A DNA stretch of 32,000 bases, taken from contig JAFGBS010000001.1 of assembly GCA_016933055.1 (NCBI GenBank), positions 90,001 to 122,000 of the forward strand. The letters run 5' to 3'. The translations under genes were made by a program, and so were the position numbers. The notes beneath the pieces are model-generated. The model was not told the DNA's origin, ran no database searches, and saw nothing but the letters and a program-made list of their open reading frames with translations. Each line of letters opens with the position of its first letter. Position 1 is the first letter of the stretch. This document shows, piece by piece, positions 1,955 to 7,312 of the stretch. Origin of the DNA: Promethearchaeota archaeon (GTDB lineage: Archaea > Asgardarchaeota > Lokiarchaeia > Sigyniarchaeales > Promethearchaeaceae).

Positions 1955-2806
1955 TTAATAGTCTCCGGGAGTTTTACTTCGGATTCTCGGAGTTTTTTCC
2001 CGTATTTCTGGAGTTTTGGACTTCATATTTCGCATAAGGTCCTCTAAATCGCTTTGCATTTTATTTACCTTCCGCATTTTTTCATCTAAATCCTTTCTAT
2101 CTCTTTTCATTTGTTTTTGTTCATCTTCTAACCGTGAACGTTCCTTTCTAAGTTGATGTTTTTCATCCTCAATCCGTCTCCTCTCATTCTCAATTTTTTT
2201 ATTTTCATTTTTCAACAGATCATTATCTCGAAGGAGTCTATTGTATTCCTTTTCCTTATCATTAATTTTATTTTCTAATTGTCTCTGCTTCCGTTCTAAA
2301 TCAGGAATTGCCTTTTTATATTTGTTATATTCATCCTCCGCTCGTTTTGCTTTCTCTTCTGCATCACTTTTTCGTCTATTTAAGCGGTCTTCCTCTCTTC
2401 TTTTTTTATCTGCAAATTCTCTTTGATCATCGCGTAATTTTGTTACTTCGCGATTTATAGCATCTTCCCGACGATCTAAACGATCCTTTTCATCTTTCAT
2501 ACTTTTTTGTTGCTTTTCTAACCATGCATTTTCATTTAGGAGTTTATCCCGCTGTTTCTGTAATTCTTTAAGTTCTTGAATAAATTTTTGACGCTGCTGT
2601 TCTAACTCTTCCAAAGATTTAGGATATTTCTCCATTTTCTTTAAGATTTTTTGCCATTCTTTTCGTTCATCTTCTAATTTTTTACGTTCTTCCTCCAGTT
2701 TTTCCCATTGTTTACGAATATCATTCGAATCTACCTCAAGATATGGTTCAGGAGTTTTAGAAATAATATCTTTTGGTGTTTTTGATCGGATCTGCTTTCG
2801 TCCCAT
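1955..2806 (-). CDS. Long coiled-coil protein with SKTP-repeat head and tail
   Basis: 283-aa ORF with an ATG start. Hydrophobic residues fall at exact 7-residue spacing over residues 68-131 (L,F,L,L,L,M,L,I,L,F) and 191-261. The Pro-containing termini carry five (S/E)KTP motifs. Confidence 0.88.
   Translation of the reverse strand: MGRKQIRSKTPKDIISKTPEPYLEVDSNDIRKQWEKLEEERKKLEDERKEWQKILKKMEKYPKSLEELEQQRQKFIQELKELQKQRDKLLNENAWLEKQQKSMKDEKDRLDRREDAINREVTKLRDDQREFADKKRREEDRLNRRKSDAEEKAKRAEDEYNKYKKAIPDLERKQRQLENKINDKEKEYNRLLRDNDLLKNENKKIENERRRIEDEKHQLRKERSRLEDEQKQMKRDRKDLDEKMRKVNKMQSDLEDLMRNMKSKTPEIREKTPRIRSKTPGDY
1968..2017 (-). repeat. Degenerate 21-bp-period repeat encoding three KTP units
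   Basis: ggagtttt occurs at 1968, 1989 and 2010 on the + strand; on the - strand this region encodes MKSKTP-E-IREKTP-R-IRSKTP. Confidence 0.8.
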
Positions 2807-2850
2807 ATATTAAGGTAGATATTATTGACTCAAAAAATTATTGCCCTAGA

Positions 2851-2879
2851 GAATTCATAGAATTATTTTGTATGAATTC
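2851..2879. promoter_or_regulatory. 9-11-9 perfect-arm inverted repeat in the divergent promoter region; candidate operator
   Basis: gaattcata-N11-tatgaattc lies between the divergent starts at 2806 (-) and 2959 (+). Confidence 0.55.
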
Positions 2880-2958
2880 AGCATAGATTTTTATTTTCAC
2901 ACTTTAAGTTGTAAGTACATTTTTTACGATTAGAAAAAAATTTAAATGAGGAATAAGA

Positions 2959-3330
2959 ATGTCAAAAGAATTTGATGAAGATTTAGATGAAGATTTAGAT
3001 GAAGACTTAGAGGAACCTGAGGTAGCATCTAAGACTCCAACCAAGGTTGTATCCAAAACTCCAGCTCCAAGAGTAGCAGGAAATGATCTTTCAATTTTCC
3101 TAATGTCCACTATTGGTCCTGGGGAAAAGAAGCAAAAATTATTAGTTAACACGGGGAATTCGGTCGGGGATATTAAACAGACAGTGGGAAGTATTTTCGG
3201 TGTAGATCCATCCGATTTCCACCTGAGTCATGGGGGAATCACAATGGATGATGGAAATTACTTAAAAGATTATCCCATAAAAGATGGAGATACAGTTCTA
3301 TTAATCCCGGCAAGTACTGCGGGGATGTAA
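2959..3330 (+). CDS. Ubiquitin-like (beta-grasp) protein with acidic N-terminal tail, ending STAG-M
   Basis: Residues ~43-122 align by eye with ubiquitin: SVGDIKQTVGSIFGVDPSDFHLSHGG vs [26 protein letters not shown], and YLKDYPIKDGDTVLLI vs TLSDYNIQKESTLHLV. It is the first gene of the E1/E2/JAMM cassette, with RBS-like gagga upstream. Confidence 0.9.
   Translation: MSKEFDEDLDEDLDEDLEEPEVASKTPTKVVSKTPAPRVAGNDLSIFLMSTIGPGEKKQKLLVNTGNSVGDIKQTVGSIFGVDPSDFHLSHGGITMDDGNYLKDYPIKDGDTVLLIPASTAGM
2974..3009 (+). repeat. 12-bp tandem repeat x3 encoding (DEDL)3
   Basis: gatgaagattta / gatgaagattta / gatgaagactta; one mismatch in the third copy. Confidence 0.95.
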
Positions 3331-3417: not shown

Positions 3418-4665
3418 ATGTCAGAATCAGATTTTTTTTCAAATAATCTTACAGAAGAAGAACGTGAATTATATGATCGACAATTTCGCTTACAAGGATG
3501 GAATCAAAGCATATTAAAAAACTCTCGAGTATTGATGGTAGGGGTGGGAGGGTTAGGATGTGAAATTGCTAAAAATCTGACAATGGTGGGAGTAGGACAT
3601 ATAGACTTAGTTGATTTGGATGTAATAGAACATTCCAACTTAAACCGACAGATGCTTTTTATAGGTGCGAAGGTTGCTCGTCCGAAAGCTCTAGCAGCAG
3701 TTGATATGCTGAAAAAAATTAACCCAAATATCACCATTAAAGGATATCGTTCCTCATTGGAACAATTACCTCCCGTATTATACAAAAAAGCCGATGTGAT
3801 TATCAGTGGATTGGATTCCATGCAAGCACGCCTAAACCTAAATACTCAAGTTATTCGGTTTAATAAACCTCTCGTGGATGGTGGTGTAAATGGATATCAC
3901 GGTCACATTTATACAATTTTTCCTAAAATAAATGCATGCTTTGAGTGTTATTCCGTTTCCTCCTCTGAAAGTGATGATATGGCTGCATGTACCGTAGTAG
4001 GAATACCCCGCAAACGAATCCATTGTTTGTTTAAAGCAATGATGAAATTTGAGGAGATTAATTCAAATCCCCCTAATGTGAAGAATATTAAAGAACTCAA
4101 ATTTTTGAAGGATAATGCTAATGAATTGGTGGAAAAATTTGGATTCGAACCCCTATTTGAAGAAAAAGAAATCATTCAAATTATTGATCACCATGATCCG
4201 GGAATTATTACCATCAATGCAGTAATTGCGAGCATACAGTCGCACGAGGTGATTAAAATACTGAATTATATTAAGGGTAATAAAGGATTGGGAATTCCGA
4301 ATAAATCTTACATTATCTATAATGGTATGACAGCTCGATTTTATCATTTGGACAAACCACGGAATGATAAATGCCCTCAATGCGGGGATGACGTCCTTTG
4401 GGAAGACTTCTATTTACGCAAAGATCAGCCCCTACAGTTAATTATTGATGGATTGAAAATGAAAGGTCATAACTTAGATTCTGAAATGGAACCGATTATA
4501 ACCATACCAGATTTTAACTCCATTCGGGAACTGGATCTGCAGAGAACTGTCCTGGAAAATAGATTGTTTCCACTCTCATTACTCACAATTTCTGGATTCA
4601 CAGAAGGGGATATTTATGTTACTCTGCATATATTCAAAGATAAGACCCTCAAACACAGTTCATAA
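3418..4665 (+). CDS. Ubiquitin-activating enzyme E1 (ThiF/MoeB superfamily, UBA3-like)
   Basis: YDRQ, GVGGLG and DLDVIEHSNLNRQ adenylation motifs. Zn motifs CFEC and CPQC. The catalytic Cys191 segment ACTVVGIPRKRIHC matches UBA3 MCTIASMPRLPEHC. There is a ~90-aa C-terminal extension. Confidence 0.93.
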   Translation: MSESDFFSNNLTEEERELYDRQFRLQGWNQSILKNSRVLMVGVGGLGCEIAKNLTMVGVGHIDLVDLDVIEHSNLNRQMLFIGAKVARPKALAAVDMLKKINPNITIKGYRSSLEQLPPVLYKKADVIISGLDSMQARLNLNTQVIRFNKPLVDGGVNGYHGHIYTIFPKINACFECYSVSSSESDDMAACTVVGIPRKRIHCLFKAMMKFEEINSNPPNVKNIKELKFLKDNANELVEKFGFEPLFEEKEIIQIIDHHDPGIITINAVIASIQSHEVIKILNYIKGNKGLGIPNKSYIIYNGMTARFYHLDKPRNDKCPQCGDDVLWEDFYLRKDQPLQLIIDGLKMKGHNLDSEMEPIITIPDFNSIRELDLQRTVLENRLFPLSLLTISGFTEGDIYVTLHIFKDKTLKHSS

Positions 4666-4695: not shown

Positions 4696-5223
4696 ATGTC
4701 AATCAGACAAAAGCGAGTATCCCAAGAATTTGCTCGTTTGAAGAAATTGTATAAAGAAGGTACAATCAAACAGCTGAAAGCTTTTGATTCCGAGAAAAAA
4801 AGTATTGATCATCTGAAGATCCTAATTCAAGGACCAAAAGGAAGTGCTTATCAGGGAGGTTATTTCAAATTAGAAATGAAATTTCCTAAGGATTATCCAA
4901 ATCAACCCCCCTTCGTACGACTACATACTCCTATTTGGCATCCCAATTTCTGGCCTAAACCAACGGAATACTCAGGTCAACGGAATATTTGTTTAGCATT
5001 AATAGATCCAAATTTTATCGGGAAAAAAGGCGGATGGAGCCCATCCAAGACTTCTGTGACGGTCGTACAAGCAATTATTGCAATGTTGAACACTTCGGGA
5101 CAATATATTAACCCTACTGATGTTTTTAACAAAAAAGCAGCCCTGGAAATGATGGAAAATCGAAAGAAATTTGATAAAAAGGTTAAAAATCTTGTTAGAA
5201 AATATGCCAACCAAAAATGGTAA
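4696..5223 (+). CDS. Ubiquitin-conjugating enzyme E2 (UBC fold)
   Basis: GPKGSAYQGGYFKLEMKFPKDYPNQPP, HPN (82-84), catalytic Cys99 in NICLAL, WSP, and NPTDVFNKKAA. Confidence 0.95.
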   Translation: MSIRQKRVSQEFARLKKLYKEGTIKQLKAFDSEKKSIDHLKILIQGPKGSAYQGGYFKLEMKFPKDYPNQPPFVRLHTPIWHPNFWPKPTEYSGQRNICLALIDPNFIGKKGGWSPSKTSVTVVQAIIAMLNTSGQYINPTDVFNKKAALEMMENRKKFDKKVKNLVRKYANQKW

Positions 5224-5243: not shown

Positions 5244-6044
5244 ATGGACGACGAAGAATCAATGGATATTGAAAGCTTGAAAGAAAAGTTAAAAGCTGAA
5301 ATGCTCCAAAAATTACGCAAAGAAATTAAAAAAGAAGTACTAATGGAGATTTACAATGAATTAAAGTCTGAAGAGAAAGAGACAATCCAAAATAAAATTG
5401 CACATGAAAATCATGAGATCGGAAAATATGAATCTGATTCCAAAGGAGAACTCGTAAGAGAGGGCACAAAGAAAGAAAAAGTTCTTGTTCAAATTAAAAC
5501 GATTATGAAAGTTGTATCCCATGCTTTGAAATATGCTAACAACAATATCCCTAAAGAGTACTGGGTAGAAGTAATCGGTTTGTTATCGGGAAAATTCGAC
5601 CAGAAAAAAAATATTGTCACAATCGAAGATGCTTATCCAATGGGACATGGAAATGCTGTGTACGCCGAAATTAAAGATTATAAGAATTTTGTAAGAGCCT
5701 ATCAAGATTTAAGTTCTAAAGGGCAATTTATTTGCGGTTGGTATCATTCTCATCCTTCATATGGGCTTTTTTTATCTTCTGAAGATATGGGGACTCAAGC
5801 CCGATATCAGAAATTTTGGGATAAATCGTTGGCTTTAGTAATTGATCCCACCCAGATAGATGGAAATAAATTGGGATTCGACATCTTTCGAGCGAATATG
5901 CGAACAAAAAAGTGGTATAAAGTTCCTTTTTTAATCGAAGGAAATTTAGATGCAAAATCTTTACCGGGATTGGTTGATTTCGTGAATCCCATTGTTGAAG
6001 GAAAGAAAATATTTTTAGAATATGATGAATCTACCAGCGGATAA
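5244..6044 (+). CDS. JAMM/MPN+ metalloprotease (Rpn11-like deubiquitylase or maturase) with N-terminal extension
   Basis: E109 in EVIGLL and an intact H168-S-H170-x7-S178-x2-D181 JAMM motif (GWYHSHPSYGLFLSSED); ALVIDP follows. Confidence 0.95.
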   Translation: MDDEESMDIESLKEKLKAEMLQKLRKEIKKEVLMEIYNELKSEEKETIQNKIAHENHEIGKYESDSKGELVREGTKKEKVLVQIKTIMKVVSHALKYANNNIPKEYWVEVIGLLSGKFDQKKNIVTIEDAYPMGHGNAVYAEIKDYKNFVRAYQDLSSKGQFICGWYHSHPSYGLFLSSEDMGTQARYQKFWDKSLALVIDPTQIDGNKLGFDIFRANMRTKKWYKVPFLIEGNLDAKSLPGLVDFVNPIVEGKKIFLEYDESTSG

Positions 6045-6121: not shown

Positions 6122-7312
6122 GTGCAAAAAAGAATTCTAAAAATCATAATATATGTGGTCATAATTGGACTTAGTCTTCTGATTGGAGTGATATTAGGCT
6201 ATACTCCCTCCAATTCTCTGAATGGATTCTTTTCATTTTTATTCATTGGTATCTGGTTGTCATACACTATTACCGTCTTGTTTCGAATTAAAAAAATGAG
6301 AGAATACCATTCTTCGTTAAATAATGCTCTATTAATATTCGGTGATTTATTCATTTCGGCATTTTACGGAATATGGGGTGATTTTACCCCTATTCTTATT
6401 CAAAGAATATTTCCCACTACATCTATGAAAATTAATCTCTGGACTGCGACTTTCTCTTTGCCATACCTAATATTTGGGACCTTCCTTCTACTTTTCTCTA
6501 TTACTAAATATTTTGCAGTATATCTCGGTAATAAAGCAATCAATGCTCGAAAATTTACAATATTTACGGGAATTGTGTTTCTGGGACTAGATTTAAGCTA
6601 TATATTATTGCGGCAAGGAATATACACCTTAGATTTTTTGGATCTCTCTCACCTATATGGAACTTTCAACGTGTATATCACCGTACATATGGGGATTATC
6701 GTGTTTTTTGGAATAGTGGGGATTATAACTCGAAATCGTTCGATGACTTCATATAATTTAGATCAACTCACCTCTCGTATGAATGATATCGATCGTCGTA
6801 TCAATGATGCCGAAATTGCCTCTGCAGCAGCACAAAGGAGTGAACAAAGGGCCCGGGATGCTGAAAAAGAGCGGCAAAGGCGTATAGCTCGCGCTGAACA
6901 ACGAAAAAAGGATAAATCTCTGAAACAACAACGTTCTTCCCCTAAAGTTTTACGTCCCACTTCCACAGCTCAATCTTCACGAAAGACTTCTGCATCTAAA
7001 TCTCGGGGATCCTCGTTAAGTGCTAAACAATTGATGGAAATGAAGCCTAAAACGGGTACTTTGAGTAAGGAGGACTTTATGTGCATCTTTTGCTTTGAAC
7101 TGCCAACTACTTCTGATAAGGGACGTGGTATTGTATTATGCCCCCACTGTCGTTATCCGGCTCATTATGACGAGTTTATGAAGTGGGTACGAAATTCAAA
7201 TTTGTGTTCCCGCTGTGATGGAGTGATACCTGCTAGCTTTATTCGCAACCCTACAATCATCCCAGTCAAAACCTATCTAAAAGTTTATAAACATTTTAAA
7301 AAGTACTTTTAA
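6122..7312 (+). CDS. Multi-pass membrane protein with C-terminal RING-like zinc finger; putative membrane-anchored E3 ligase
   Basis: GTG start. About six hydrophobic segments in residues 7-202, then a charged helical linker, an S/K/R-rich spacer, and C321-x2-C324...C340-x2-C343-x4-H348-x2-E351-x3-W355...C362-x2-C365. Confidence 0.8.
   Translation: MQKRILKIIIYVVIIGLSLLIGVILGYTPSNSLNGFFSFLFIGIWLSYTITVLFRIKKMREYHSSLNNALLIFGDLFISAFYGIWGDFTPILIQRIFPTTSMKINLWTATFSLPYLIFGTFLLLFSITKYFAVYLGNKAINARKFTIFTGIVFLGLDLSYILLRQGIYTLDFLDLSHLYGTFNVYITVHMGIIVFFGIVGIITRNRSMTSYNLDQLTSRMNDIDRRINDAEIASAAAQRSEQRARDAEKERQRRIARAEQRKKDKSLKQQRSSPKVLRPTSTAQSSRKTSASKSRGSSLSAKQLMEMKPKTGTLSKEDFMCIFCFELPTTSDKGRGIVLCPHCRYPAHYDEFMKWVRNSNLCSRCDGVIPASFIRNPTIIPVKTYLKVYKHFKKYF

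Follow-up and report, generated by a model that had tools for sequence, protein, structure and literature searches.

A K-T-P lysine motif shared by the tails of an Asgard ubiquitin-like modifier and its coiled-coil neighbour

The 32,000 nucleotides analysed here (hereafter the window) come from a Promethearchaeota archaeon (NCBI GenBank assembly GCA_016933055.1, contig JAFGBS010000001.1, positions 90,001 to 122,000 of the forward strand) and contain an operon for a ubiquitin-like modifier (Ubl) and its enzymes, next to a divergently transcribed gene for a coiled-coil (CC) protein. The Ubl and the CC protein share a short linear motif, built around the residues K-T-P, which is under strong purifying selection in the accessible (predicted disordered) tails of these two co-inherited proteins. 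As read from the alignments, and counting positions from the lysine, the motif is hydrophobic(-3)-x-x-K-(T, rarely V/I)-P. We favour the view that its lysine is a dedicated acceptor site for the cascade encoded in the operon, and put the probability of this at roughly 40%; the other readings that we consider are non-covalent docking, polyanion binding, phosphorylation and chance.

All seven copies that the original prediction had noticed in the two proteins were confirmed by translation at their residues (Table 1), and the E1, E2, JAB and RING-like proteins of the module have no copy; that prediction had noticed none in the other proteins it tracked. Successive lysines are 8 residues apart in each N-terminal pair and 7 apart in the C-terminal triplet, so that the regular spacing described earlier is correct for the window; equal 8-residue spacing as a conserved feature was abandoned, because orthologues have distances of 5, 7, 9 and 11-13, and already in the nearest relative the distance is 7 for the Ubl but 8 for the CC protein. 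Equal spacing is thus peculiar to this genus. The synonymous codons used for Ser, Lys, Thr and Pro differ among the seven copies; the similarity is thus kept at the protein level, and does not stem from a DNA repeat or from recent gene conversion. In the AlphaFold2 (AF2) model of the Ubl, the tail (residues 1-30) is coil with a confidence (pLDDT) below 60, while the fold scores above 90. The AF2 model of the CC protein, based on a 20-sequence alignment, has helices at 27-59 and 62-263 between a disordered head and tail (pLDDT below 50 at 1-24 and 264-283), and the CC motifs fall in these sole disordered parts, no more than 25 residues from either end.

Table 1. Features of the locus, with positions in the window
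Feature	Position	Strand	Basis or remark
CC protein, 283 aa	1955..2806	-	open reading frame (ORF); Pfam matches are coiled-coil noise
CC tail motif 3, I275-R-S-K278-T-P280	1967..1984	-	translation; three residues from C-terminus
CC tail motif 2, I268-R-E-K271-T-P273	1988..2005	-	translation
CC tail motif 1, M261-K-S-K264-T-P266	2009..2026	-	translation
CC head motif 2, I14-I-S-K17-T-P19	2750..2767	-	translation
CC head motif 1, I6-R-S-K9-T-P11	2774..2791	-	translation
Divergent intergenic region between CC gene and Ubl operon, 152 bp	2807..2958	.	inverted repeat inside
Ubl, 123 aa	2959..3330	+	PF00240, E = 1.8e-8
Ubl layout: acidic leader, two KTP motifs, beta-grasp fold (43-117), C-terminus ...STAG122-M123			
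Acidic leader of Ubl, E4-E21, D/E-rich DEDL repeats	2968..3021	+	direct repeat in DNA
Ubl tail motif 1 (distal), V22-A-S-K25-T-P27	3022..3039	+	translation
Ubl tail motif 2 (proximal), V30-V-S-K33-T-P35	3046..3063	+	translation; 10 residues ahead of strand beta-1
E1-like activating enzyme (ThiF)	3418..4665	+	PF00899, E = 1.9e-56
E2 (UQ_con)	4696..5223	+	PF00179, E = 2.1e-28; HPN and catalytic Cys99 read in sequence
JAB/MPN (Rpn11-like) isopeptidase	5244..6044	+	PF01398, E = 3.5e-14
Polytopic membrane protein with C-terminal Cys/His RING-like domain (putative E3)	6122..7312	+	ORF; Cys/His pattern read from sequence

Close homologues of the Ubl are labelled Promethearchaeota (Asgard), and others carry the labels Hod-, Heimdall-, Thor- and Helarchaeota. 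The family has a common architecture: behind an acidic leader come one to three copies of KTP, then a short linker of Gly, Ala and Pro, and then the beta-grasp fold, which opens with ...STIGPGEKKQK; the chain closes with ...LLIPASTAG and 0-4 more residues. A121 and G122 do not vary, and the family is not Gly-Gly ended. The acidic leader is conserved as FDE(D/E)L repeats with 15-35 acidic residues across 120 homologue clusters. In 118 of these 120 nearest clusters, spread over several Asgard lineages, the N-terminal tail bears KTP, most often twice (70 clusters) or once (46), with three copies in 2 clusters and none in 2. K33 and P35 of the proximal copy are invariant in a 90-sequence alignment and T34 is at least 90% conserved; despite the variable tail around them, K33 and P35 are thus as well conserved as the residues of the fold core and the C-terminus. 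The +1 residue of the proximal copy is T in 85%, I in 5% and V in 2% of sequences and never S, and its lysine lies 14-21 residues (mode 19) upstream of the STIGPG motif. The distal copy, with P27 at least 90% conserved, degenerates in some lineages: in about 30 of the 120 clusters it has decayed to K-x-P (such as KSP, KAP, KKP or KIP), KSP accounting for about 9% of distal copies, and is reduced to x-T-P in about 8. The serine at -1, which had been taken as part of the motif, is common but drops out of it, since its place can be taken by E, T, K, A, D or V; as a feature of the motif it is specific to this genus.

For the CC protein, a sequence search gave one weak match only, and a look-up in the ESM Atlas returned generic coiled coils with scores of at most 0.83 and no family. 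Coiled-coil composition defeats sequence search, and we therefore gathered orthologues by locus and by profile search of genomes. The 20 locus-based orthologues align at 28-45% identity, with rods of 283-435 aa and large indels; the alignment has 8 invariant columns, four of which are K9, P11, K264 and P266; at T265, conservation is at least 90%. Family f1, to which the window belongs, carries two to five copies in tandem, which frequently repeat every 7 residues; head motif 2 is present in f1 orthologues and absent in f3. In families f3 and Hel each end has a single extended copy, which reads approximately IPKYQIREKTPEE in the head and IPKYKIKSKTPSKY-stop in the tail. KTP forms the literal C-terminus (...KTP-stop) in two orthologues (L029, L035). 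The 395-aa CC protein of family f18 ends exactly ...IRTKTP. At the conserved positions, both in the 90 Ubl sequences and in the head and tail columns of the 20 CC orthologues, the lysine is never replaced by arginine. Orthologues of both proteins keep the motif, which is the conservation on which the original prediction had been made to depend. Variants of the CC copies at +1 include KKP, KLP, KEP, KRP, KAP and KHP. In two lineages where the Ubl has lost its threonine (KAP/KSP in one, KKP/KVP in the other) the CC copies are relaxed too (KKP; KLP and KRP), at least one KTP being kept; these two cases are suggestive of co-variation between the two proteins. Within the rod, a near-invariant proline (Pro168, window 2303-2305; K-A-I-P-D here and K-[IV]-P-K-A-E in f3) suggests a conserved kink, and f3 orthologues have a second internal K-I-P-G.

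The pattern at +1 bears on the earlier proposal that the T-P step is a phospho-switch. In this case, proline-directed phosphosites (K-pT-P) flanking the rod would control its assembly, with the Ubl tail under the same kinase. In its favour, proline-directed kinases need no more than T-P, a rod flanked by a head and a tail that both bear sites recalls the regulation of intermediate filaments, and the KSP variants of the distal Ubl copy are in line with it. The proposal is nevertheless disfavoured by the exchange of threonine for isoleucine or valine and never for serine in the proximal copy, by the CC variants listed above, and by a distant family (f7) in which the corresponding arrays read K-V/F/I/L/Y-P and offer no phosphorylatable residue. 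It also leaves the invariant lysine unexplained, and no kinase gene is present in the loci inspected. We therefore regard phosphorylation as a very unlikely explanation of the motif.

The two proteins are inherited together. The Ubl was found in 29 of 41 related genomes, with a full-length CC match in the same 29, and neither was found in the remaining genomes, among them two single-contig genomes and one scored 100% complete; two Ubl-less genomes gave rod-only coiled-coil noise in the CC search. An E2 search in five Ubl-less genomes retrieved only a paralogue at 39-42% identity, compared to 69-83% for orthologues. In 28 of the 29 genomes the CC gene adjoins a KTP-bearing Ubl gene; the divergent arrangement is kept in families f1, f3, f7 and f18 and on a Helarchaeota-labelled contig, and the pairing persists in the distant families f7, f16, f18 and f23. 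In a phylum-level scan the Ubl family occurs in seven families and in none of the genomes of two large ones (0/32 and 0/14). The f3 genomes have two free Ubl paralogues, both with KTP, and a membrane-anchored, non-conjugatable Ubl without it, and in f4 a vWA-KTPx2-Ubl fusion starts 7 nt after the CC gene. Ubl-family fusions lie at L023:9691-11448 (-) and L035:8072-9814 (-); the vWA fusion comprises a vWA domain, then KTP twice, then a Ubl with ...STAG and 15 residues beyond it, and a P-loop NTPase-Ubl fusion ends ...SSRAG and is without KTP. In two f3-type loci (L026, L028) the CC/Ubl block stands a few genes from FtsZ, a TPR protein and a nucleotidyltransferase-like protein; a link to cell division by way of FtsZ was considered and dropped, as f1 and the Helarchaeota-labelled locus do not share this synteny.

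The neighbours of the Ubl in the distant families f7 and f16 are low-complexity proteins. In f7 it is a divergent K/P-rich protein of 244 aa with five K-(V/F/I/L/Y)-P pentads per end; that of f16, encoded at the 3' end of the operon, is K/P-rich and very basic and has arrays of KTP/KIP at its two ends. Such arrays raise the question of whether K-x-P(-K) repeats are polyanion binders, similar to the S/TPKK repeats of histone H1, with the motif of the Ubl tail related but separate. The CC ends would then bind DNA, RNA, an acidic membrane or the polyacidic leader of the Ubl, whose conserved 15-35 acidic residues would provide charge complementarity; the strongly basic character of the f7 and f16 proteins, with K-x-P-K pentads at both ends and internally, and the net basic C-terminal tail of the CC protein in the window agree with this. 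However, non-specific tails normally have no invariant K and P and no +1 threonine fixed across families. The CC head, as read from its sequence, is nearly neutral, and in f3 the head motif runs into an acidic stretch (KTPEEE). The pattern [ST]-P-[KR]-[KR] is absent in the window, where no motif copy is followed by two basic residues and a single one follows only at KTPK and KTPR, and the K-x-P-K arrays are confined to the f7 and f16 neighbours. Polyanion binding also leaves unexplained why the Ubl keeps the motif beside its own acidic leader, and we consider it improbable.

We also asked how exclusive the motif is to this pair. The genome of 3.76 Mb was scanned as a greedy set of 3,440 ORFs and as a six-frame set of ORFs of at least 50 aa (2.16 million residues). 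SKTP occurs 18 times in the 3,440 ORFs against 11 expected, and six of the 18 lie in the CC protein and the Ubl. Only these two proteins among the 3,440 have at least two matches to [IVML]x[SE]KTP; four of the five KTP pairs at most 12 residues apart in the six-frame ORFs are theirs; and the CC protein alone in the genome has at least two K-x-P within 35 residues of both ends. Single copies of [IVLM]xxKTP are at expectation in the proteome (53 observed vs 47 expected), and a DNA pattern of the extended motif, run on f3 genomes among the relatives, matched almost only both CC ends. The proposed proteome scan for further substrates thus gave no enrichment, and with single copies at expectation and the extended matches confined to the CC ends, there is no E2 consensus from which substrates could be predicted: the motif is private to the module and is not a proteome-wide consensus. 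A second ubiquitin and a second E2 are encoded at C17:520661-520843 (-) and C22:160065-160484 (-). This ubiquitin is tail-less, of the GG type (ending ...QAGG-N) and without KTP; two ubiquitin-like systems therefore coexist in the genome, and only that of the window carries the motif. Two unrelated proteins terminate exactly in ...KTP (C17:623847-625145 (-) and C6:305328-306260 (+)), which may be chance.

These counts also bear on whether the likeness between the two proteins is an accident of composition or the functionless product of a recent duplication or gene conversion between divergent 5' ends. The genes are adjacent and divergent, and one 13-nt perfect inverted match links a CC tail copy to Ubl copy 2. 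The copies nevertheless differ in their codons at synonymous sites, and both proteins have kept the motif, between variable flanks, in many genera and several families. Taken together, the genome-wide counts, the codon differences and the conservation exclude chance and a DNA-level origin; we give this explanation practically no weight.

What, then, does the motif do? The suggestion that it is the acceptor consensus of this E2 survives in part. The invariance of K and P, the co-inheritance, the disordered tails and the presence of the motif on the Ubl's own tail all support a functional motif tied to the module; the notion of a consensus that extends over the proteome does not hold. That the K-T-P lysine is an acceptor dedicated to the operon's cascade is favoured by its invariance, by the position of the motif at the extreme termini, by the precedent of SUMO2/3 and Smt3, and by an unusual insertion in the E2. 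This insertion of 7 residues (FWPKPxEY..., F85-N97, window 4948-4986) lies between HPN and Cys99, is invariant in 10 orthologues and is absent from canonical E2s. In Ubc9, Tyr87 within the HPN-to-Cys stretch contacts the SUMO consensus in the Ubc9-RanGAP1 structure, and we infer, as a lead, that the conserved insertion beside the catalytic Cys might read the K-T-P context. The operon E2 has an additional loop after the catalytic Cys, and the second E2 of the genome has a different, shorter insertion.

We infer the following covalent steps. The JAB protease would remove Met123 and expose Gly122; the E1 would adenylate the Ubl and hand it to Cys99 of the E2; and the E2, aided by the membrane RING protein, would transfer it to the K-T-P lysines at both ends of the CC rod. 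The Ubl would also be joined to K33 and K25 of another Ubl to give tail-linked chains, similar to those at K11 of SUMO2/3 and at K11, K15 and K19 of Smt3, and JAB would reverse the modification. Put together, this would be a self-contained Asgard Ubl system with a dedicated, genetically linked substrate, in which the cascade, guided by the private K-T-P lysines, caps or cross-links the CC ends at the membrane and forms tail-linked modifier chains by way of them; we put forward this complete picture tentatively, as a possibility that has less than even odds. If it is true, the system is an archaeal counterpart of SUMO-style motif-directed conjugation, with the motif-less paralogues as chain terminators.

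Several points weigh against the lysine being an acceptor. The strict conservation of T and P would fit a peptide-binding pocket equally well. Two paralogues that appear conjugatable, the P-loop-Ubl fusion (with a RAG end) and a second Ubl of f16 (with a STAG end), have no motif, which implies that the motif is not needed for handling of the Ubl as such. The K/P-rich, low-complexity neighbours in f7 and f16 could bind polyanions through their K-x-P-K arrays instead. The E2 does not resemble Ubc9 more than it does other E2s: its best matches among solved structures are E2-15, UBE2R1/2 and UBE2G1, and Ubc9 scores no better. The relatives compared are not independent, so that the co-occurrence counts overstate the support they give. 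A predicted complex of the E2, the Ubl fold (38-122) and the CC head (1-40), with a score of 0.06 and a mark of 0.32, speaks neither for nor against binding.

Much of the same evidence can be accommodated by non-covalent docking, the alternative that the original prediction itself named. The K-T-P peptide of either protein would then bind the same pocket on one component of the module, be it the Ubl fold or one of the E1, E2, JAB and RING-like proteins, with its lysine serving for binding and not as an acceptor. In this way modifier and CC scaffold would be recruited to the same (membrane-bound) enzyme, or the CC ends would compete with or mimic the Ubl tail. Conservation at three fixed positions (hydrophobic -3, K and P) with a constrained +1 (T, I, V) is of the kind seen in short linear motifs, and the fairly fixed distance between motif and fold suits bipartite recognition of fold and tail by one enzyme. 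The proline is retained at least as well as the lysine in degenerate copies, and in the distal Ubl copy slightly more often, which is a further point against the acceptor; the multivalent f7 arrays suggest avidity, and co-inheritance and synteny suit a partner as well as a substrate. Set against this, electrostatic docking usually tolerates an exchange of Lys for Arg, which never happens at the conserved copies, no reader domain has been identified, and the location of the motif at the very termini, up to the literal C-terminus in two orthologues, is unusual, if not impossible, for a peptide bound in a pocket. On balance we think docking somewhat less probable than the acceptor lysine, which we retain as our preferred interpretation.

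On the plus strand of the locus the genes follow in the order Ubl, E1, E2, JAB and membrane RING-like protein, with the CC gene divergent on the minus strand, and the signatures of the E1, E2 and JAB proteins are intact. The beta-grasp modifier, ThiF E1, UBC-fold E2 (HPN, Cys) and JAMM protease together constitute a cassette of the Caldiarchaeum type, and ubiquitin is the closest solved structure in a profile search with the Ubl. The RING-like protein has no RING match in the Pfam search; its gene, with a conserved Cys/His pattern, occupies the same operon position in every locus inspected. An inverted repeat lies between the CC gene and the Ubl at 2851-2862 and 2868-2879 (GAATTCATAGAA / TTGTATGAATTC, 5 nt apart), and is a possible operator shared by both transcription units. 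Further along, between 7400 and 21906, the window encodes ordinary metabolism and transport (an MFS_2 transporter, an M20 peptidase, a molybdopterin oxidoreductase with a 4Fe-4S subunit, an M32 carboxypeptidase, an AMP-binding enzyme, a creatininase-family protein and flavoproteins), and none of these genes is linked to the Ubl module in relatives.

We know of no physiological substrate for the eukaryote-like ubiquitin cascades of archaea. The shared motif names specific lysines and a specific partner, and so provides a first candidate for a natural target or docking partner of this tagging system. Should the lysines prove to be acceptors, archaeal relatives of eukaryotes would have both motif-directed conjugation and tail-linked chains, and a coiled-coil, probably membrane-proximal, structure would be what the system acts on; if the motif is for docking, it would be a recognition peptide of a new kind, read by an Asgard E2, E3 or deubiquitinase. 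As far as we can tell, the phylum-wide conservation, the co-inheritance with the CC protein, the fusions and the refined motif are new. A full-text literature search for "KTP motif" returned only Raf kinase and fluorescent probes, which are unrelated; a term search of papers on Asgard ubiquitin found neither the motif nor the CC partner, and "KTP" does not occur in the two of them that were checked for it, one being 10.1101/2023.07.25.550441.

Two archaeal systems invite direct comparison. The operon of Caldiarchaeum subterraneum, encoding Ub, E1, E2, a small RING protein and Rpn11, has been reconstituted in vitro (PMC5654768, PMC6043591), with an artificial substrate, Rad50, as described in 10.1101/2023.07.25.550441. 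It is alike in being a compact operon with a Ubl, a ThiF E1, a UBC-fold E2, a JAMM/Rpn11 protease and a RING-type protein, and in the C-terminal trimming of the pro-modifier. The modifier of the window differs in its acidic leader, its KTP motifs and its Ala-Gly end; moreover, the RING-like domain here is part of a polytopic membrane protein, and there is a co-inherited, dedicated CC gene. In Helarchaeia, an E1/E2/RING cascade modifies the neighbouring ESCRT protein UEV-Vps23 in vitro (bioRxiv 10.1101/2023.07.25.550441). This is likewise an Asgard system in which the product of a neighbouring gene is the proposed substrate, and it indicates that reconstitution is feasible. It uses, however, a GG-type pro-ubiquitin and is tied to ESCRT genes, whereas the KTP module is separate and has a different partner.

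More remote parallels can be drawn for the motif itself. K-(S/T)-P repeats occur in the CDK sites of lamins, the KSP repeats of neurofilaments and the S/TPKK repeats of histone H1. The resemblance lies in the placement of such repeats in disordered flanks of a rod or in basic tails; the difference is that threonine is here replaced by isoleucine, valine or other hydrophobic residues and not by serine, that lysine and proline are invariant, and that the motif is also found on a Ubl. In the sortase-built pili of Gram-positive bacteria, a lysine in the pilin motif (YPKN) accepts the C-terminal threonine of the next subunit. Should the acceptor interpretation be right, both systems would combine a lysine motif and a reactive C-terminus on a small protein to yield head-to-tail polymers on a base protein, although transpeptidase and E1/E2 chemistry are different and there is no homology.

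The closest analogy is to SUMO. The tail lysines K11, K15 and K19 of Smt3 match the psi-K-x-E consensus. In SUMO2/3, a consensus lysine in the flexible N-terminal tail is the main site of chain formation, and Ubc9 reads the motif directly (PMC4869838). Here, as in SUMO2/3 and Smt3, the disordered N-terminal tail of a modifier with the ubiquitin fold bears the same lysine motif as the putative target, which suggests that chains grow through the tail; motif-less paralogues could terminate them, as SUMO1 does. The differences are also clear. The SUMO consensus is psi-K-x-[E/D], whereas an invariant proline, and not an acidic residue, stands at +2 here; the SUMO motif is found throughout the proteome, and this one is private to two or three proteins. 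The present modifier is closest to ubiquitin and ends in Ala-Gly, the E2 is not specifically like Ubc9, and covalent use of the lysine is in our case putative. By analogy, we thus suggest that the KTP module may work in the manner of SUMO consensus conjugation, without being a member of the SUMO system.

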